Virus record (IMG/VR): IMGVR_UViG_3300034135_000005
Location: 1 to 40,667 of that record
DNA: 40,667 nucleotides
Source: a virus
Direction: 5' to 3' (one strand)
Position numbers and translations under genes: made by a program. Under the pieces are notes generated by a model. The model saw nothing but the letters and a program-made list of their open reading frames with translations. It was not told the origin of the DNA and searched no databases. Each line of letters starts with the position of its first letter. Within the stretch, counting starts at the first letter, position 1. Below are positions 1,457 through 40,667 of this stretch, piece after piece.

Positions 1457-2050
1457 ATGAGCGATATGGCGCGTCCTAAGGACCGGGCTGGCGGGCTTCG
1501 CCCTGAGCCTGCTGCGCAGTCTCAGCCTGCCGGCGCTCATCCCTCGCGCAAGCTGCAAGCAGCGATCGACGCAGGGCGTGAGCAGGGGAGGCTAGCCCTG
1601 TTCTTCGGTGCGAACCCAATGGGCCACTACCTCCACCACCCAAGCGGTCAGAAGATTTGGAATAACTGCGATGTGCCCGCTTTGCCGTGGAACGTAGGTC
1701 TTATGGACGGGGGCTTGCTCAAGAACGGCAAGCGGCCGGACGTGTACGATGGCAAAGTCTATTGGACTGTGGGCGGCCTATCGCTTTGGTATGCATTCTT
1801 CTGGTGGGATAGATCCGGCGACACACGCCGAGCTTCCAACTCCGGGTTCTATGTGCGCGGTTTCGGTTGGCCTGAAACCACGGCGGCGTTCGAGTACGCC
1901 TGCTCGCAATTCCCTCGCATAGTCGCAAGGCAGCATCACCCGCTGGTCCTCCAGGCTCCCCGCGATAGCGACGGAAGCCCGCAGGGCGGAGACGGCGAAG
2001 CTGGCTCCGTGCGTAGCACGACGGCGCGGGCCGAAGGCATCGCCCAATGA
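1457..2050 (+). CDS. Hypothetical protein; last ~30 codons are repeat element copy A
   Basis: RBS GAGAGGAAGG before the ATG and high third-position GC. The N-terminal MSDMAR leader resembles that of the PAPS-reductase-like gene at 38443. Confidence 0.7.
   Translation: MSDMARPKDRAGGLRPEPAAQSQPAGAHPSRKLQAAIDAGREQGRLALFFGANPMGHYLHHPSGQKIWNNCDVPALPWNVGLMDGGLLKNGKRPDVYDGKVYWTVGGLSLWYAFFWWDRSGDTRRASNSGFYVRGFGWPETTAAFEYACSQFPRIVARQHHPLVLQAPRDSDGSPQGGDGEAGSVRSTTARAEGIAQ
1961..2045 (+). repeat. Mini-hairpin repeat element, copy A
   Basis: CGCGATAGCGA...GGCATCGCCC. Shares a perfect 28-nt block (2018-2045) with copy B. Contains CGC-GATA-GCG, GCCC-GCA-GGGC, GGC-GAA-GCT and GCC-GAA-GGC stems. Confidence 0.8.
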
Positions 2051-12837: not shown

Positions 12838-12916
12838 CGTAGTAAGCTGATCGGACCGAGGCGGCGCGCCAACGCCAGCCCCGGCCCTAACCACCACCGA
12901 TCGAGAAGGGATCGAG

Positions 12917-13711
12917 ATGGCTGAAGCCGCCATAGGCGCGCTGAAGGCGTGCACCAAGTGCGGGGCTGAGAAGCCTGCTGACCGGCACCATTTCCCGCCA
13001 GTCGGTAAGGGCTTAAGGCCTCGGTGCCGACCGTGTTGGCAAGAGCATGAGCGCGAGTATTTCTGGGCCAATCGCGAGCGAAAGCGCGAAATAGCGACGG
13101 GCGTCCGCCAGCGTGCCGATAAAGCCCGCCGCAAAGAAAAACTTGATGCTTGGCGTGCGGCGAACCCCGACAAGGTTCGGTTCAACGATCTGCGCCGTTC
13201 TGCGAGGATAAAGACTGACCCTACGGAGCGGGCAAAGGCCAGCGAACGACAGCGACGGTGGCGGGAGAATAACCCGGATAAGGTTCGCTCCCAGCGGCGC
13301 GAGAGATACAAAGACCCTGAGGTCGCGCAGCGCTCCCGAGAAGCAACCCGCCGCTGGCGGCAAGCCAACGCAGAGACGGCGCGCGAAAAAGACCGGCAGT
13401 ATCGCGCTGCGCACCCGGAATACGTGATCGAACACGCCGAAAGACGCCGCGCTCGGCTTCTTCGTGCTGAGGGTGACTTCACCGGAAATGACGTGATTGC
13501 CTTGATCAAATCATACGGGCGTGTTTGCTACTACTGCTCCACGAAGCTCAAGAAGTTTCAGGTAGACCATTTCATTCCGCTATCTCGCGGCGGATCGAAC
13601 TGGCCGAATAATCTCGTTATCGCTTGTCAACCCTGCAACGGGAGTAAGGCCGCGAAGATGCCATGGGAATGGAAGCCAGAACGCTTCCTGCCCGGTGCCG
13701 CGCCATACTAG
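12917..13711 (+). CDS. HNH endonuclease with N-terminal Zn-ribbon and basic W/Y-R-x-x-N-x-E/D repeats
   Basis: CTKCG..CRPC; repeats RRWRENNPDKV and RRWRQANAET; HNH core CYYCSTKLKKFQVDHFIPLSRGGSNWPNNLVIACQPCNGSK. Confidence 0.85.
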   Translation: MAEAAIGALKACTKCGAEKPADRHHFPPVGKGLRPRCRPCWQEHEREYFWANRERKREIATGVRQRADKARRKEKLDAWRAANPDKVRFNDLRRSARIKTDPTERAKASERQRRWRENNPDKVRSQRRERYKDPEVAQRSREATRRWRQANAETAREKDRQYRAAHPEYVIEHAERRRARLLRAEGDFTGNDVIALIKSYGRVCYYCSTKLKKFQVDHFIPLSRGGSNWPNNLVIACQPCNGSKAAKMPWEWKPERFLPGAAPY

Positions 13712-21009: not shown

Positions 21010-21396
21010 ATGCCAGGAAGTGATTACCGCGCGGCGCTCGCCGCGGCGGGGGTCGGCTATTTGCCGCTCTCCTGCGGACGGTTCGTGCCGTTCGACCGCA
21101 CGCTCGTATTCGAGGACGTGGACTACTCGGGAGCGACCTTCCTCGGGCAAGTGCGGCTGAAGCCTGATGCCAGCGGTTCGGCAGTCGCAAGCTTCACGGT
21201 CACGCCCAGCTTCGCCACCCCGAACACACTGGTGCGTCTTCAGATCGCAGAGGCGACGATGGAAGCCATGCCGGCCGCGGCGGAGCAGGGCGCGAACCTG
21301 ACGCTTTATTGGGATCTGCACGTCACCCCATCGGGCTCGTCCAAGCAGATGATGCTGGCGGGCGAGTTCACCGTTCTGGCGGGAGTTACGCAATGA
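21010..21396 (+). CDS. Hypothetical protein (tail-fibre region)
   Basis: ATG ORF coupled to the next gene. No recognisable motif. Confidence 0.6.
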   Translation: MPGSDYRAALAAAGVGYLPLSCGRFVPFDRTLVFEDVDYSGATFLGQVRLKPDASGSAVASFTVTPSFATPNTLVRLQIAEATMEAMPAAAEQGANLTLYWDLHVTPSGSSKQMMLAGEFTVLAGVTQ

Positions 21397-22937
21397 GCGA
21401 CACGATCGTCCGCGTCGGTTCGTCCGATGTCGTGGTGCGGCTTTACGATCCCGGCGCGCTGGCAATCCTTGGCGAGATCAACGCTGCTGCCGATGCGGTT
21501 AGCGACCTGATCGAGGATGCCGAAGCGGCGGCAGGAACGGCAACAGCAGCGGCAGCCGAGCTATTCAGCCCATGGGGGCCGAAGGCGGTGTCGGTCCCTG
21601 CCTACGCCAACGCGATCACCAAGAAGATCGTCCTGTGGAGCGCAAAGAGCCGCGATCTCTACGTGTCGCTGGTGCAGACCTCGACCACGCAAATCCGGGT
21701 TATCGTAAGCGACCCCGCATTGAACGACGATCAGGTGGGCGTGTTTCAGCTCGCCTCACCCGATTACTCTGCCGGGGGCGTGAACCTGCCCGATCGCATC
21801 CTGTTTCTTGGACAGGACCCGCTTGCCGGTGTGCCGGGGGGCGATCCGGACGGCGCTAACTACACGGGCCTTGAAGGCTACCTGGAGCTTCACAAAGGCG
21901 CAGTGGTCGAGGGTCCGGCGGCTATTCAGCCAACGGGTGTAACCGAGACCCAGATCAACCCGCTCAACATCCACACGACCTATTCAGTCCCGGCGACGGT
22001 GCGCGACAATCGCCTATGGCGCTATCGCGATGTGATCGAAGCGGGGCCGGGCCGGGCATTCGCCACCCCGCGCGAGGCCGTCGAAGCGCTCTACACGCCC
22101 GACTCGCTTGCCCAGCTCGCAGCGGCTCCGCTGGGCGTGGCGGTGCAGCCCGAGAGCTTCCGCGCGACAGCGATCAATCCGGTGCTGATCGTCATCGACG
22201 TGCCGGACGCCGGCAGCCCGTTGGAGCCTTGGCAGGATCAGAACCTGCACCTGCCCAACTACGTGTCGATGATGGCGCGCTACCCCGGCGCGGTGTGGTT
22301 CGAGCATTCGCCCGGCGCGACGCGGCCGATCTTGCAGGCGCATCTCACCCACCAGCTCATCGATATCAACTGGCGCAACACCGTGCCCGAGGGAACGGAT
22401 TACGGCACGTCACCCACGACCAGCAGCGCACGCTACGCCGTTCACCGCGATTATTTCCACCTGTTCCAAGGCCCGGATGCGGAAGGTGACTTCGCGCGCG
22501 CCGCGCTGTTGCAGATCATCGGCGGGTCCATGGTGGTCGGACCCAGCGCAAACATTCAGCCGTTCGGCTCGGCGATCACCGTTCAGGACACCGTCGAAAT
22601 CCTCGACACCGTGCTTGACGTTGAGAACGCTGCCTACGGCGGATCACTCGCATCGGCGAACAACTCAAGCCTCGCATTCGGTGGCGGGCGCTTCACCTTC
22701 CGCAATTGCTGGGACCGTTCGGGCCGCGTGGACACTCCTACCGTCGCGGTGCAGACCAAGACCAACGCGGCCTATCCCAACATCCTCAACATCGACGGGT
22801 GCCGCGGCTTTGAGAAGGTCTCGCTTTCGCCGGGCTCGGGCGGCTCGTTCGTCGGCAAGTGGGTCCTGATCGGCAACAACACGATCACGGCTGGCGACGT
22901 GGAGAGCACGATCGTCGGCGACACGCTGGGGCTGTGA
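21393..22937 (+). CDS. Putative second receptor-binding / tail spike-like protein
   Basis: ATGA overlap at 21393. 514 aa, Ala-rich coiled N-terminus then a large beta-rich-looking domain. Function inferred from position only. Confidence 0.5.
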   Translation: MSDTIVRVGSSDVVVRLYDPGALAILGEINAAADAVSDLIEDAEAAAGTATAAAAELFSPWGPKAVSVPAYANAITKKIVLWSAKSRDLYVSLVQTSTTQIRVIVSDPALNDDQVGVFQLASPDYSAGGVNLPDRILFLGQDPLAGVPGGDPDGANYTGLEGYLELHKGAVVEGPAAIQPTGVTETQINPLNIHTTYSVPATVRDNRLWRYRDVIEAGPGRAFATPREAVEALYTPDSLAQLAAAPLGVAVQPESFRATAINPVLIVIDVPDAGSPLEPWQDQNLHLPNYVSMMARYPGAVWFEHSPGATRPILQAHLTHQLIDINWRNTVPEGTDYGTSPTTSSARYAVHRDYFHLFQGPDAEGDFARAALLQIIGGSMVVGPSANIQPFGSAITVQDTVEILDTVLDVENAAYGGSLASANNSSLAFGGGRFTFRNCWDRSGRVDTPTVAVQTKTNAAYPNILNIDGCRGFEKVSLSPGSGGSFVGKWVLIGNNTITAGDVESTIVGDTLGL

Positions 22938-25934: not shown

Positions 25935-26342
25935 CTAGGTGTGGGCGATGCCGTTCCGGCCCGCGCTGTCGCCCTTCGGGTCGAGCCCTACGGTCTCGCC
26001 GGCTTCGCCGCTTCCATCGCTATCGCGGGGTGCGAACATAACCGTGTTCCAAAGCGCGTTGCCGCAGCCCGCGAACCGGTAACTGCTACTCCACCCACCG
26101 ATGACGACGTCGGTAACTGTCAGTTCTTGCCCCGGTTCGAAGCATAGCTTCGCCTCGTTGAGTTCGAAGGCGTAGCCGTTTGCCGCTAGGAAGATGACGG
26201 CCTCGCCCACGCACGCCATACCAAGGGCGCGCGGGTCCATGCGCGAGGGATCGAAACCCGAAGGGCGACGATCCGTAGGAGCGTCGTGCGTAAAAAGAGA
26301 GCCCGGTGCCAACGGCACGCGCCCATCCTGATTATCGCTCAT
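25935..26342 (-). CDS. Hypothetical protein; last ~30 codons are repeat element copy C
   Basis: ATG 26342 (MSDNQDG) with GGAGATGGAAG upstream. No recognisable domain. Confidence 0.65.
   Translation of the reverse strand: MSDNQDGRVPLAPGSLFTHDAPTDRRPSGFDPSRMDPRALGMACVGEAVIFLAANGYAFELNEAKLCFEPGQELTVTDVVIGGWSSSYRFAGCGNALWNTVMFAPRDSDGSGEAGETVGLDPKGDSAGRNGIAHT
25943..26027 (-). repeat. Mini-hairpin repeat element, copy C (module order permuted)
   Basis: Reverse complement reads CGCGATAGCGATGGAAGC GGCGAAGCC.. CCCGAAGGG ..GCGCGGGCCGGAACGGCATCGCCC. Confidence 0.75.
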
Positions 26343-26396
26343 CTTCCATCTCCATAACACTGTCGCGCATCTCAAACTCAATTACAGGGGAGGGGG

Positions 26397-28858: not shown

Positions 28859-29357
28859 GATCGGGTCCAAGTGCGGTGCGGGCGCGAATGGCGGCGGCAA
28901 TGTCGTTGCAGGCATCGACGTAAGCGTCCTTGGGCGAGAATACGTCGTGGAAGTCCTTGCTTTGCGTGTCGCGCTCATCCTCTGCGATCAGGGCGCACGC
29001 CTCACGCTCGGAATCGGCTGCTGCGTTGCGGTGGGCGGCAGCGCGCGCCATGATATGCCGGTGCATGTATTCAGGGATCGACGCCCATGTGTCCTCGTCG
29101 AGCCAGTCGCGGTCGGATTGCTGGGCGCGGCCGATCCAGTGGCGTGCGCCATTGCTATCGGGGCGAGAAATGATCCCCTCCGCTTCCATACGCTCAATGT
29201 ATCGGCAGGCCTGATTGTAGCCGACGCCCATCTTGCGCTGAAGGTGGGACGTGGAGCCGCTACGACCGATCTCTGCGATGCTGACGGCCTTGGCATACCG
29301 CACCATTGCCCAGTCGTGCTTGTCCCGCTGTTCTACAGTCAGTGTATTGTTGGTCAT
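28851..29357 (-). CDS. FtsK-gamma (KOPS-binding winged-helix) domain protein
   Basis: YAKAVSIAEIGRSGSTSHLQRKMGVGYNQACRYIERMEAEGIISRPDSNGARHW matches the FtsK gamma signature (StS.lQR...iGYnrAarlie.mE..Giv). Confidence 0.75.
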   Translation of the reverse strand: MTNNTLTVEQRDKHDWAMVRYAKAVSIAEIGRSGSTSHLQRKMGVGYNQACRYIERMEAEGIISRPDSNGARHWIGRAQQSDRDWLDEDTWASIPEYMHRHIMARAAAHRNAAADSEREACALIAEDERDTQSKDFHDVFSPKDAYVDACNDIAAAIRARTALGPDHV

Positions 29358-29947
29358 TGGCTGGACCCGGAATTAGAGGGGGCGATGCCTTCGGCCCGCG
29401 CCGTCGTGAACGAAGCCGCATTCGCGTCTTCGCCCTTCGGGTGCTCATCGCTATCGCGAAGCATACGGTGCAGCTTGATCTGAAGGACTTTGGCTTCGGC
29501 CAAGTCTTCAGGAATGTCGCGGATGGGAATGCCAACCGCTTCATTCAAAAGGCGCTTGGCGTGATAAAGCAGTTCGCGCTCAGGGTTATCGCGACGCCAT
29601 CTCTGGATACGCGCGTAGATCGCGGCATAATGCTTGGAGCGGTAGCCCTTGCGGCGCGCATTAATCACCGCCTTGTTCGCTATGTAGCGATCCTTCGCTC
29701 GCGCGCTTATCTGTTCGGCGTTGTTCTGACGATATGCACGGGCAGCAGCGACGCGCGAATCCTTGTGCTTGGCGTAGTCGGCGCGAATGCGGGCGCGCGC
29801 CTCATCTGGCGCAGCATCGTAAGCCGCTTTTTTGGCAGCCAACCTAGCTGCCCTGTGCCGGGCGTAAGCAGCCCTTTGCCGTGCTTTGTTGCGCTCGGCG
29901 TTCTTGTGCCAATTCGCACGGCGAGCTTCCGGGTCGCGATAGGGCAT
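29354..29947 (-). CDS. Basic repeat protein related to the N-terminal half of the 12917 HNH but lacking an HNH core; ends in repeat element copy B
   Basis: Repeats ARAYRQNNAEQ, IQRWRRDNPERE, RRANWHKNAERN. No HNH motif. C-terminus RDSDEHPKGEDANAASFTTARAEGIAPSNSGSSQ. Confidence 0.7.
   Translation of the reverse strand: MPYRDPEARRANWHKNAERNKARQRAAYARHRAARLAAKKAAYDAAPDEARARIRADYAKHKDSRVAAARAYRQNNAEQISARAKDRYIANKAVINARRKGYRSKHYAAIYARIQRWRRDNPERELLYHAKRLLNEAVGIPIRDIPEDLAEAKVLQIKLHRMLRDSDEHPKGEDANAASFTTARAEGIAPSNSGSSQ
29380..29458 (-). repeat. Mini-hairpin repeat element, copy B
   Basis: Reverse complement reads CGCGATAGCGATGAGCACCCGAAGGGCGAAGACGCGAATGCGG..ACGACGGCGCGGGCCGAAGGCATCGCCC. Confidence 0.8.
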
Positions 29948-29950
29948 GTC

Positions 29951-30298
29951 CTAAGCCTTGACCTTGCAATGGGGGGACTTGCACCCGAGAGCGTCAGCCT
30001 CAGTGACGCGCTCGTCGCACTGATCGCACCAGATCAGGCCATCCGCGTCGGGGGCGGGAAGCGCATTGCGGGGGTCGTCTGCCGCACCGATGAGCATAGC
30101 GCCAGCAATAGGCTGGTCCTTACCCATTTGCGCCAAGCGCAAAGCGGTATTCACCTCAACCGCCAGAGAATTGTTGATCTGCGCCGCCACCTTTGAGATC
30201 GCGTTAGCCTGGTCGGCCTCAATGTTGCCGCGCCGGATGTCTTGCATGACCTCCGCAAGAAAGCCGCGCAGATCGCCAGCGGTCTTGATCCGCGTCAC
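29951..30298 (-). CDS. Hypothetical protein with C-terminal Cys cluster
   Basis: GTGA-coupled start. CDQCDERV..CKSPHC motif. Confidence 0.6.
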   Translation of the reverse strand: MTRIKTAGDLRGFLAEVMQDIRRGNIEADQANAISKVAAQINNSLAVEVNTALRLAQMGKDQPIAGAMLIGAADDPRNALPAPDADGLIWCDQCDERVTEADALGCKSPHCKVKA

Positions 30299-30504
30299 GA
30301 CGCGTTCTCCTGCGAAAGTCGATTGAAGCCCGAAGGGTGAAGACCGGAACGGGCTTCATCGCGAAGCGACGAAAGCGCGGTGCCGAAGGCATTCGCCATG
30401 ACTTCGGATCGCCACAAAGGATCAACCCTATCCCTCCTCATCCTCTCCACGAGGACTCGAGCGACATGCTCATCATTGGCAATGGTTCTGATGGTAGCCA
30501 TCAT
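30295..30504 (-). CDS. Small hypothetical protein (69 aa)
   Basis: ATG 30504 with AAGGA upstream. Confidence 0.5.
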   Translation of the reverse strand: MMATIRTIANDEHVARVLVERMRRDRVDPLWRSEVMANAFGTALSSLRDEARSGLHPSGFNRLSQENAS

Positions 30505-32993: not shown

Positions 32994-33127
32994 TACTGCG
33001 TCCTCATGTTTGCAAGCAGCCCAGGAAGGCGCTCAATAGCTTCACGAAACCCGTTGAAGATGGTGGGCAACGACACGGCAAAGCCGATCGCGAAGATGGC
33101 GGTGGGAAGGGCTTCATGGACGGTCAT
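32993..33127 (-). CDS. Small membrane protein (44 aa)
   Basis: ATGA-coupled start. TM segment LPTAIFAIGFAVSLPTIF. Confidence 0.45.
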   Translation of the reverse strand: MTVHEALPTAIFAIGFAVSLPTIFNGFREAIERLPGLLANMRTQ

Positions 33128-33477
33128 GCGCCGTCCCCGGTGCGCTCTTCGTCCCACTCGCGGTGCATGGCGATCATGGCCATCAGCAAGGGACGCATCC
33201 GCCAGTTGATGTCGTTCCGGATGGTGTTGACCAACGACAGCTCCCAATTTCGCGAGCGACGCGCGTCCTCGGACAGCTTCTGCGGGTACATCGTCTTGAG
33301 GTGATTGACCGCCTCTCGCCCGATGTTGCGCGCCATCTCGTCAAACAGGCGTCGAGCGCGCTGCTCCTGCGTCTCGCGCGAAGGATCGAAGCCCATCGGG
33401 GCGAGACCCGGAACGGGGCTCGACGGCGAAGCCGCGAGAGCCTGGCCCGTAGGGCGCGCCATATCGTGATCTACCAC
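33124..33477 (-). CDS. Hypothetical protein
   Basis: GTG start with GGGGAGA upstream. Coding-like composition. Confidence 0.55.
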   Translation of the reverse strand: MVDHDMARPTGQALAASPSSPVPGLAPMGFDPSRETQEQRARRLFDEMARNIGREAVNHLKTMYPQKLSEDARRSRNWELSLVNTIRNDINWRMRPLLMAMIAMHREWDEERTGDGA

Positions 33478-38254: not shown

Positions 38255-38446
38255 ATGATCCCGCTGCTATCCCGCATCTTGCGTAGGCGCAACGAACAGC
38301 CGGTGGATCCGATCGCAGAGGCATCACGCCGCCTCGACGCACACCGCGCCGCCAACATCGCCAAGCTCGACGAACCCTACCGCAAAGCCGGTCGCAAGGG
38401 CGCTGAAACCCGTCGCCTGCGCTTCATGGGGGAGGGGCGGTCATGA
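38255..38446 (+). CDS. Small basic hypothetical protein (63 aa)
   Basis: RBS GGAGGGG before ATG 38255. The track ORF upstream of it looks non-coding. Confidence 0.5.
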   Translation: MIPLLSRILRRRNEQPVDPIAEASRRLDAHRAANIAKLDEPYRKAGRKGAETRRLRFMGEGRS

Positions 38447-39369
38447 GCGACATGGCGCGTCGGCAAGCCGACCAGGCTCTTGCCCTACGGGCCGAGCCCG
38501 CAAGCGGTCTCGACGCTTCGCGCTTCAATCCTTCGCGCGACGACGACATTCAATTCGAGATGTTCGCCGTCGAGCGTCCGAGCATCGAGCAGATCGTCGC
38601 GGCGGGCCTCGCTCACAACCCGGTCGCTAAGTTCGCCATGTTCTCCAGCGGCGACGGCAGCTTGGCGGCAACTCATTGGGCGATGAACAACGTTCCCGGG
38701 TGCGAGGTGCTGCACATAAACACCGGCATCGGCATTGAGCGCAGCCGCCTGTTCGTGCGTGAGACTTGCGCGCGCGAAGGTTGGAAGCTGACCGAGGTGC
38801 GCGCCAAGGAGGACTGCGGTCAGGATTACGAGGAGATCGTCGCAGAGCACGGCTTCCCCGGCCCCGGCTCCCACGGCCTTATGTATCGCCGCCTGAAGGA
38901 GCGTTGCGTTGAGCTTGTAGTGCGCCAGCGCAAGACGGCCCGATCGGACAAGGTGATGCTGCTAACCGGCATCTGTCACGACGATAGCTATCGGCGCAGC
39001 GGCTACGGCGGGCGCGAGATCACCTTCAAGGGCGCGCAGATGTGGGTGAACCACCTCTATTGGGCGGGCCAGTCGTGGCGCGAACGATACGTCGCGAGCG
39101 TGAGCATCCCGCGCAACCCGGTGGCCGTAGAACTCGGCATGTCGGGTGAGTGCCTGTGCGGGGCGTTCGCCGGCAAGGGCGAGTTGCGCATCGTTCGCCG
39201 CGTCTGCCCCGCCACAGCCGATCGAATCCAGGCTTTGCAGCACCGCATCTCCAACCGGCACCCGTGGGGATGGGAGGACCGCCCGCCGCGCGATCGCGAC
39301 CTCGCCACCCCCGACTTCTTCGCTCCAATGTGCGTGAACTGCTTCAAATCCGAGAGGTTAGCTGCATGA
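38443..39369 (+). CDS. PAPS reductase / DndC-like ATP-pyrophosphatase family protein
   Basis: PP-loop-like FAMFSSGDGSLAATHW (compare SGGKDS). Family-typical length and Cys-rich C-terminus. Confidence 0.7.
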   Translation: MSDMARRQADQALALRAEPASGLDASRFNPSRDDDIQFEMFAVERPSIEQIVAAGLAHNPVAKFAMFSSGDGSLAATHWAMNNVPGCEVLHINTGIGIERSRLFVRETCAREGWKLTEVRAKEDCGQDYEEIVAEHGFPGPGSHGLMYRRLKERCVELVVRQRKTARSDKVMLLTGICHDDSYRRSGYGGREITFKGAQMWVNHLYWAGQSWRERYVASVSIPRNPVAVELGMSGECLCGAFAGKGELRIVRRVCPATADRIQALQHRISNRHPWGWEDRPPRDRDLATPDFFAPMCVNCFKSERLAA

Positions 39370-40518: not shown

Positions 40519-40667
40519 GCACTGACGCACTGGCGCATGTTTGGAATGCGCGATGCCCTTCGGCCACGCACAAGTTGGTCCTGATATTTCTCGCGAACGG
40601 CACGCCGCAGCTCGGCTATGCCGCGAACCTCGAATGGATCGGCATGTGCGAGTTCGCCGGCTATGAC
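40515..40667 (+). CDS. 5' part of the HTH-HNH endonuclease gene (continues at 2-487 across the circular junction)
   Basis: GTG 40515 overlaps the rusA stop (GTGA). The frame is continuous with position 2 once 40541 is mapped onto position 1. Confidence 0.8.
   Translation, partial: MSTDALAHVWNARCPSATHKLVLIFLANGTPQLGYAANLEWIGMCEFAGYD
40541..40667 (+). repeat. Terminal overlap, identical to 1-127
   Basis: Exact 127/127 identity. Confidence 0.95.

Follow-up and report, generated by a model that had tools for sequence, protein, structure and literature searches.

The stretch of DNA analysed here (the window) comprises positions 1 to 40,667 of the IMG/VR virus record IMGVR_UViG_3300034135_000005, 40,667 nucleotides (nt) in all. 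It is a complete temperate siphovirus of ~40.54 kb whose assembly is circularly closed, with an identical 127-nt terminal direct repeat (1-127 = 40541-40667). Its genes include those for an integrase, Erf, a RecE-like exonuclease, NinB and a DnaD-like replication protein. Scattered through it are copies of a short, self-complementary element, most of them arranged in inverted pairs that bracket small open reading frames (ORFs) and are translated as the ends of those ORFs. In this paper we describe the copies in the window, the fold that they share with homologues in other phages, in plasmids and in microviruses, and the strand on which those homologues lie. We argue that the element is probably a signal working on single-stranded DNA (ssDNA), with a role in priming.

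Copies of the element in the window

An initial annotation of the window had reported three copies (A, B and C), each forming the end of an unrelated ORF. All three are real and lie where it placed them. They share a common start, CGCGATAGCGA, at 1961, 26017-26027(-) and 29448-29458(-) (three matches against 0.02 expected; none of 100 shuffles reached three), and a common end, GGCATCGCCC, which occurs four times in the window against 0.33 expected, three of the four being at copies A, B and C. The perfect block common to A and B is 29 nt long (2017-2045 and 29380-29408), one base more than the 28 reported. In ORFs A, B and C the copies are in the sense orientation and in the RDSD frame, as described, but the same-frame rule fails in other genomes. 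Each of the three ORFs does stop nearby, at a distance of 0-21 nt past the element rather than the 5-30 nt first given. The number of copies was too low: an nhmmer profile built from A-C found five more, and a covariance model then confirmed exactly eight (67-87 bits, the E-values of this model being only rough), four on each strand.

Six of the eight copies make up three inverted pairs (E/A, C/F and B/D), each enclosing one or two small ORFs. Cassette 1 is bracketed on the left by copy E (1462-1552, - strand; nhmmer E=2e-5; covariance model 72.5 bits) and on the right by copy A (1959-2050, + strand; 86.8 bits). It contains ORF A (1457-2050, + strand; 197 aa), whose core spans ~1553-1958 and which is lengthened at both ends by the elements. 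Copy E, antisense to ORF A, supplies the N-terminal ~32 residues (MSDMARPKDR...AHPSR), and copy A supplies the final 29, directly adjoining the stop codon. Cassette 2 has copy C as its 3' bracket (25938-26029, - strand; 77.2 bits), in sense within ORF C (25935-26381, - strand; likely start the ATG at 26342, MSDNQ...), and copy F as its 5' bracket (26238-26329, + strand; 81.6 bits), antisense to ORF C and translated as ...GRVPLAPGS...GFDPSR. Cassette 3 lies between copy B, the 3' bracket in sense within ORF B (29375-29460, - strand; 67.3 bits), and copy D, the 5' bracket (30309-30403, + strand; nhmmer E=7e-7; 81.6 bits). Its cargo (29354-30298, - strand) consists of ORF B (29354-29947; 197 aa) and the ORF at 29951-30298 (115 aa), and the GTG start of the latter is 11 nt downstream of the 5' end of copy D. 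Neither cargo ORF of cassette 3 has a family match. ORFs A, B and C have no family in Pfam, and the sole PHROGs match among them, phrog_8472, covers the core of ORF C and stops before the tail.

The remaining two copies are unpaired. Copy H (33373-33466, + strand; 76.9 bits) is antisense at the 5' end of the ORF at 33124-33477(-), and copy G (38448-38541, - strand; 79.1 bits) is antisense at the 5' end of the ORF at 38443-39369(+), which begins MSDMARR; four of the five newly found copies are thus antisense at an ORF 5' end. In the pairs the 5' ends ('heads', GCG...) point inward and the 3' ends ('tails', ...CGCC) outward, so that an enclosed ORF, whichever strand it is on, has its 5' end in an antisense copy and its 3' end in a sense copy. 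It is because of this geometry that the copies first noticed were all in sense with their ORFs. The ORF that starts within antisense copy G is PAPS-reductase-like (phrog_424), and a PAPS reductase gene is also found near a copy of the element in the leading region of a Massilia plasmid (L246). Phage PAPS reductase has been reported to counter Dnd defence (PMC13551039).

A conserved fold

Two pattern scans of IMG/VR gave a viral sample of 102 loci, in 95 of which a profile found 209 copies, and the fold was tested on an alignment of 72 diverse copies. The element has a median length of 82 nt from closing stem to closing stem. It consists of a 5-bp closing stem (P1, GCGNN...NNCGC), a six-position stem (P2, xxG-A-T-N with N'-A-G-Cyy) that contains an invariant A·G, and four small hairpins: H1, a longer H2 (GAGAC...GGCTC), an optional H3, and H4. 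Most of these hairpins have C-GNA-G mini-hairpin loops.

Covariation analysis, as proposed with the initial annotation, showed strong compensatory change. Standard pairs occupy 91.4% of the pair cells in the alignment, against 68.2% in shuffles, and both sides have changed in 22 of the 28 pairs (408 cells, 136 expected). For covariation the score is 0.503, shuffles giving 0.130 and none of 500 reaching 0.503; it falls to 0.04-0.09 when partners are slid by 1-3 columns. The complementarity of the 5' and 3' ends, which had been likened to terminal inverted repeats, is real but represents the closing stem of a single folded unit.

Elements from alpha-, beta- and gamma-proteobacteria do not vary in their unpaired junction bases or in two A·G mismatches. 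Past the closing stem, the 3' flank over all loci reads C (94%), C (78%), A (61%), and many copies run on as CCAATGA to form an overlapping stop/start (ATGA) junction between adjacent genes. The conserved junction bases and the 3' CCA suggest recognition by a protein and not mere stability. A tRNA-like reading, prompted by the 3' CCA, was rejected, since the fold does not have the cloverleaf shape and ARAGORN makes no call at the elements. Elsewhere in the window ARAGORN calls an 83-nt tRNA-Gln(CTG) at 22187-22269(-), inside a long + strand ORF (21309-22937), which is probably spurious.

A variant of the element occurs mainly at beta-proteobacterial loci and at a few gamma-proteobacterial ones (L110, L124, L138, L148, L178, L180, L202, L211, L213, L216, L221 and similar). 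It keeps the core hairpins and differs in its 5' part, which is highly conserved (TCAGCCGAGCGGAGCGAGGGAAC...), and in its last hairpin, which is longer. BLAST of this variant against GenBank phages gave no match.

DNA or RNA

The paired cells of the 72 copies comprise 1766 Watson-Crick pairs, 27 G·T and 29 A·C, whereas an RNA fold under selection normally has G·U far above A·C. The A·G mismatches are present at their two positions in 72 and 69 of the 72 copies. The loops are strand-specific as well: among the 209 viral copies C-GNA-G occurs 613 times on the sense strand against 181 expected, and its complement C-TNC-G 77 times against 77 expected. The exceptionally stable loops of RNA are GNRA and UNCG. 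C-G-closed GNA triloops, by contrast, form the hyperstable class of mini-hairpins in DNA (review, PMC13037366). The pairing, the A·G mismatches and the strand-specific loops point to folded DNA rather than to RNA or protein. The initial annotation had offered a structured RNA or ssDNA signal as one option. The ssDNA form of that option is supported by the covariation, the lack of a G·T excess over A·C, the strand-specific loops and the strand positions given below.

Searches of Rfam gave no match on the window elements or in 18 bacterial loci, whether the threshold was the gathering score or E up to 10. Two sub-threshold Rfam matches elsewhere, R1162 antisense RNA (E=2.2) and RtT (E=1.8) at 12852-12924 and 13245-13362(+), fall in the structural-gene region and are most likely due to chance.

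Peptide tails and the ORF A family

The initial annotation had also suggested a portable C-terminal peptide cassette, and this suggestion fails. ORFs in other genomes run through the element in at least two frames, giving RDSDGSPEG... 29 times and AIEARRAET...GSVHES 15 times, and antisense copies yield unrelated N-termini. A comparison of orthologues with and without the tail, again as proposed, found both forms. Most of the 542 ORF A homologues are 140-155 aa long and end at the core; they begin M-x-x-LQAAI and finish LVLQxP, the exact points at which the window elements begin, so the tail is absent from most of them. Six loci with short ORF A homologues have no element within 3 kb. Between the window and its homologue in locus L024, the ORF A core has 58 synonymous and 36 non-synonymous codon differences, and the extensions have 4 synonymous and 19-20 non-synonymous. 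On the sequence evidence the tails are translated by-products and not a domain, and the element is conserved at the nucleotide rather than the peptide level.

In other phages members of the ORF A family lie among the early genes, and one short homologue, in a prophage of a Mesorhizobium chromosome, is directly downstream of the tape-measure gene (L251:3001-3465). The family is very rich in tryptophan, with the motif WYAFFWWDRSGD. The ORF A core had no match in plasmids by tblastn. Calls of the coding frame from G+C content at third codon positions were too noisy at this G+C content.

Cassettes in viral genomes

Inward-facing pairs are the rule in the viral sample: among neighbour copies within 2.5 kb of each other 65 of 102 pairs have this arrangement, the others numbering 19, 10 and 8. 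Small cassettes usually have one ORF running through the whole interior, which starts 0-30 nt outside one tail and whose stop is either the TAG of GATAGC or lies 0-48 nt beyond the other tail. Unpaired copies showed no bias of orientation relative to long ORFs (19 sense, 18 antisense). The cargo ORFs are very diverse and most are without a family; examples with one include a Fic protein, a methyltransferase, a DUF1643 protein and a YspA-type SLOG protein. A full-length Acb3, the inhibitor of the cyclic oligonucleotide-based antiphage signalling system (CBASS), is encoded in a bracketed cassette at L043:2835-4052 (IMG/VR 3300021061_000068; Pfam PF25187, E=2.8e-89), and the same cassette is found in L064. 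The brackets may flag anti-defence genes.

Window positions 1460-2050 are homologous to L024:4759-5350, the homology being bounded by the element tails and the flanks being unrelated, which indicates that the bracketed unit was moved or exchanged as a whole. Empty sites were sought by comparing the flanks of 54 cassettes with BLAST, and the only results were identical duplicates or complex cases. The loci that have the gene downstream of cassette 1 (2085-2669) share no upstream synteny and carry no element. BLAST of the window and of cassette 1 against GenBank phages found no close relative; the capsid gene of the window has 74% nucleotide identity to that of Mesorhizobium phage vB_MseS-P1. 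Direct repeats at the ends, sought as target-site duplications, were as frequent as in an offset control (4-mers, 11 versus 7). The window ORFs scanned included no transposase, and no systematic search for a parent insertion sequence was made.

Conjugative plasmids and bacterial genomes

A loose pattern scan of bacterial sequences gave 120 loci, 67 of them with true copies, from alpha-, beta- and gamma-proteobacteria. In multi-copy loci 10 of 11 neighbour pairs are co-oriented. BLAST with a consensus copy retrieved 665 plasmid records, mostly conjugative, of which 338 were from Klebsiella, 92 from Enterobacter and 65 from Pseudomonas, followed by Citrobacter, Xanthomonas, Bradyrhizobium and others. 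Plasmids carry 1-3 copies.

Nine of the plasmid regions found by BLAST were inspected; in eight, the element is surrounded by genes typical of leading regions or of establishment. Its neighbours there are genes for ArdA or KlcA antirestriction proteins, an ArdC-like metallopeptidase, PsiB, SSB (the protein that binds single-stranded DNA), ParB-like proteins, methylases, DUF932, DUF3560 and anti-CRISPRs. Every copy in these eight regions is opposite to the coding strand and 320-760 nt upstream of the next gene. The template strand of leading-region genes is the strand transferred in conjugation (Samuel et al., PMC11541004). The strand rule for plasmids is drawn from the F plasmid, the nine BLAST-derived regions and the co-orientation in genome loci.

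In the F plasmid (NC_002483) there are exactly two copies, 58086-58175(-) and 63474-63563(-). Two ~550-nt repeats that are 89% identical (58070-58621 and 63458-64011) each have one of them at the 3' end, as read on the transferred strand. Within these repeats lie Frpo2, which is upstream of ssb, and Frpo1, which is upstream of ygeA (PMC9849209); both are among the Frpo/ssi ssDNA promoters known from the leading regions of F and ColIb-P9 (Masai and Arai 1997; Couturier 2023, PMC9849209; Samuel 2024, PMC11541004; Wen 2025, PMC12672017). Small G+C-rich hairpins, for example GCGACCGGAACGGTCGC, lie between the long Frpo hairpin and the element. In supplementary file 4 of Samuel et al. the element core is absent from the known Frpo/ssi sequences, and one intergenic candidate clips its 5' half. 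Of 5426 complete E. coli genomes, 2264 (42%) have an F-type copy; it occupies 4828 plasmid and 60 chromosomal places and is never annotated as a feature.

In a Pseudomonas monteilii plasmid (L245:7434-8095) the 560 nt between the element and the next leading gene, for DUF932, form a very long ssDNA hairpin (z = -5.6), which from its predicted folding looks like an undescribed Frpo-like promoter outside Enterobacteria. The equivalent stretch adjoining ArdC in a Bradyrhizobium locus (L256) has no such fold (z = -1.5).

Microviruses

The element is also found in three small microvirus genomes. In Gokushovirus KT264808 it occupies the spacer between VP1 and VP2, and in MH572438 the spacer between the scaffold and Rep genes, in each case on the + strand. 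Both of these annotated genomes therefore carry it between genes and on their viral strand, the coding one. In plasmid leading regions and gokushoviruses alike the strand bearing the element is the strand that enters the cell single-stranded, with one plasmid context ambiguous. This strand is the template for the plasmid genes and is coding in microviruses, so that a function in RNA would need the element in opposite orientations, and a function in ssDNA in only one.

Discussion

We propose that the element is a strand-specific structured DNA that acts when single-stranded and starts or organises complementary-strand synthesis through a host factor, a reading about which our own belief and doubt are evenly balanced. 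That function is deduced from position and sequence statistics. Under a coat of SSB the compact G+C-rich junction would keep its fold, and a host factor, primase or RNA polymerase, would recognise the fold and begin or organise the complementary strand, a job akin to that of the G4 complementary-strand origin and of the Frpo/ssi signals in F. As gokushoviruses themselves encode almost nothing, the reader of such a signal must be a host factor. The element would always lie 3' of the DNA to be copied, the order on the entering strand being 5'-gene complement, Frpo, element-3' in plasmids and 5'-capsid gene, element-3' in the microvirus. In a phage cassette the upstream copy has the polarity seen in plasmids and the downstream copy that seen in the microvirus, and the inverted, inward-facing pairs mean that each strand of the cassette has a foldable copy 3' of its gene. 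The ORFs read through the elements, and gain N- and C-terminal extensions, because the genomes are tightly packed. Common brackets would let cassettes, some of them anti-defence, move as units between otherwise unrelated genomes.

For the phage itself we see several possible roles. The element may act on lagging-strand or recombination intermediates, as the phage has Erf and an exonuclease; it may extrude as small hairpins from supercoiled DNA, by analogy with the promoters of phage N4; or the copies may be mainly common brackets for cassette exchange. Hairpins in leading regions can also block complementary-strand synthesis (10.64898/2026.01.09.698686, where the element is not mentioned), and a roadblock or insulator role would be a variant of the ssDNA-signal hypothesis. 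A wider version of the proposal is that one host-read ssDNA signal is common to conjugative plasmids, integrative and conjugative elements, gokushoviruses and temperate phages of Proteobacteria, and that the phage pairs form a strand-symmetric portable cassette that needs no integrase; this we put forward only tentatively, as less likely than not.

Several observations weigh against a role in complementary-strand synthesis. The window is a double-stranded temperate phage with no obligatory single-stranded stage, and its copies are evenly split between the strands. The folding energy of single copies is not significantly below that of shuffles (z -0.5 to -2.6), so that the evidence for the fold is its covariation. 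In F the element is upstream of Frpo relative to transcription, and the published 329-nt Frpo/ssi sequences exclude it and work without it. The ninth plasmid region inspected, from Xanthobacter, has an ambiguous context, and the microvirus records are few. A covariance model searched against the G4 origin gave no match. In motif tests on 111 copies (promoter boxes, CTG and attC cores), CTG was found within 12 nt 3' of the element in 17, against 19 in a control window.

Comparison with known signals gives likenesses and differences. Like the plasmid copies of the element, Frpo/ssi signals lie in leading regions on the transferred strand and are associated with anti-defence and establishment genes; Frpo works only when folded on that strand, and the element is joined to both Frpo repeats of F. 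Frpo, however, is a ~330-nt, A+T-richer hairpin that rebuilds the -35 and -10 boxes of sigma-70, whereas the element is an 82-nt G+C-rich junction of several hairpins, in which TTGACA is found within one mismatch in 12 of the 111 copies and TATAAT in one. The leading-region, transferred-strand trait belongs to the plasmid homologues, in F and in eight of the nine contexts; the window copies are phage-borne and on both strands. The microvirus homologues, and only these, resemble origins of the G4 and phiX type as intergenic hairpin clusters on the viral strand adjoining the capsid gene. The G4 complementary-strand origin holds a related GCGAAAGC mini-hairpin, and dependence on a host factor of the kind used by such origins would explain the spread of the element over unrelated replicons. 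The element lacks a conserved CTG start, and the two have no similarity in sequence or by covariance model.

The promoters of the phage N4 virion RNA polymerase are small DNA hairpins whose loops have 3 nt and which can extrude when the double-stranded phage DNA is supercoiled. They resemble the element as small hairpin recognition signals, and extrusion would offer it a route to action in a double-stranded phage, but each N4 promoter is one hairpin, and its reader is a dedicated polymerase of the phage, which the window phage lacks. CUP repeats of IncN plasmids and Aca-bound RNA hairpins were also considered, and were dropped as unrelated.

Among the alternatives is a selfish palindromic element that is tolerated at gene boundaries because it is open for translation and whose fold is needed for transposition. 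The models for it would be MITEs (miniature transposable elements with inverted repeats) or the palindromic elements that Ogata and colleagues reportedly described in Rickettsia in 2000. The latter are likewise palindromic repeats within genes, read in frame and adding a peptide that orthologues lack, a likeness of function only: the present element is confined to ORF termini, usually as inverted pairs, in phages and plasmids and not the chromosome, it has a conserved branched fold, and there is neither sequence relationship nor a shared host range. MITEs and the repetitive extragenic palindromes (REPs, with their mosaic and doublet forms BIME and REPIN) are, like the element, short, repeated and self-complementary, often as inverted doublets. 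REPs are simple chromosomal intergenic hairpins of 20-40 nt that depend on REP-associated tyrosine transposases (RAYTs), whereas the element is branched, 82 nt long and on mobile elements; MITEs have target-site duplications, which the element lacks, and its pairs enclose genes. The many phage copies (eight in the window, 209 in 95 viral loci), the in-frame translation at gene ends, the orthologues with and without a tail and the self-complementary ends would all suit a selfish element. The MITE- or REP-like option of the initial annotation holds only loosely: target-site duplications were not found, nor a transposase candidate among the window ORFs scanned; plasmids have only 1-3 copies, on the same strand and in the same place relative to leading-region genes; junction bases and both A·G mismatches are invariant across three proteobacterial classes; and the unit that differs between genomes is the whole cassette rather than the single element. 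We regard a selfish origin as unlikely.

No more probable, in our view, is a recombination site or linker of the attC kind, at which cassettes would be cut out, inserted or swapped through the fold or the common ~80 nt, any priming being secondary. The integron attC is conserved in structure over sequence, is active as a folded single strand and adjoins diverse, promoterless-looking cassettes, as the element does. The bounding of the window/L024 homology by the outer element ends, the high diversity of the cargo, the prevalence of inward inverted pairs in phages, and the Erf, RecE-like exonuclease and NinB of the window phage would all fit. But the R''/R' core sites (RYYYAAC / GTTRRRY) were found in 0 of the 111 copies, and the pairs are inverted and not direct, so that a site-specific recombinase would invert the cassette rather than excise it. 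No integrase partner or other recombinase co-occurs with the element and gokushoviruses encode none, the single-strand rule in plasmids is left unexplained, and neither an empty site nor a swapped cassette was found between close relatives.

A function in RNA seems to us rather improbable. The element would then be a stable multi-hairpin at the 5' and 3' ends of accessory transcripts, serving in either orientation for protection from RNase, processing or termination. Phages of the phiX174 type have terminator or stabiliser hairpins after the capsid gene, and it is after the capsid gene that the gokushovirus element comes. The copies in phages lie exactly at the starts and ends of ORFs, and purely Watson-Crick pairing would let both orientations fold. 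Such a role is opposed by the balance of G·U and A·C (27 versus 29), by loops of the C-G-closed GNA type, which are exceptionally stable as DNA (PMC13037366), and by the strand specificity of these loops and of the A·G mismatches, as the leading-region mRNAs of plasmids are antisense to the element and those of microviruses sense. Ribosomes would, moreover, unfold an element lying inside a translated ORF, and no Rfam family corresponds to it. An ordinary conserved C-terminal protein module, for which the RDSD...GIA frame common to the three window ORFs would speak, is very improbable given the two or more frames used elsewhere, the unrelated N-termini from antisense copies, the absence of the tail from most orthologues, the dominance of non-synonymous divergence and the lack of a Pfam or PHROG family for the tail.

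Nothing describing the element turned up in a literature search by sequence fragments and by topic, which did not extend to older subscription work on the F leading region, and the element appears not to have been described before. We rate it as belonging with the ssDNA signals, the new part being its use by phages as inverted pairs that bracket accessory genes and are translated into them.

If the element does act on ssDNA, it would be a missing component of plasmid establishment, situated at the edge of both Frpo modules of F. It is at present unannotated in plasmids of Klebsiella, Enterobacter, Pseudomonas and Xanthomonas, and it lies next to ArdC in alpha-proteobacterial elements. Its translation explains a class of seemingly spurious extensions at the N- and C-termini of small proteins of phages (RDSDGSPEG..., AIEARRAET..., ...GFDPSR). 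For phage biology, an inverted pair of the 82-nt fold is a marker for accessory and candidate anti-defence genes and for the boundaries of mosaic exchange. Were the wider proposal true, a cassette could be made duplex, or be expressed, from either of its strands, and genes such as Acb3 could move between phages and plasmids.

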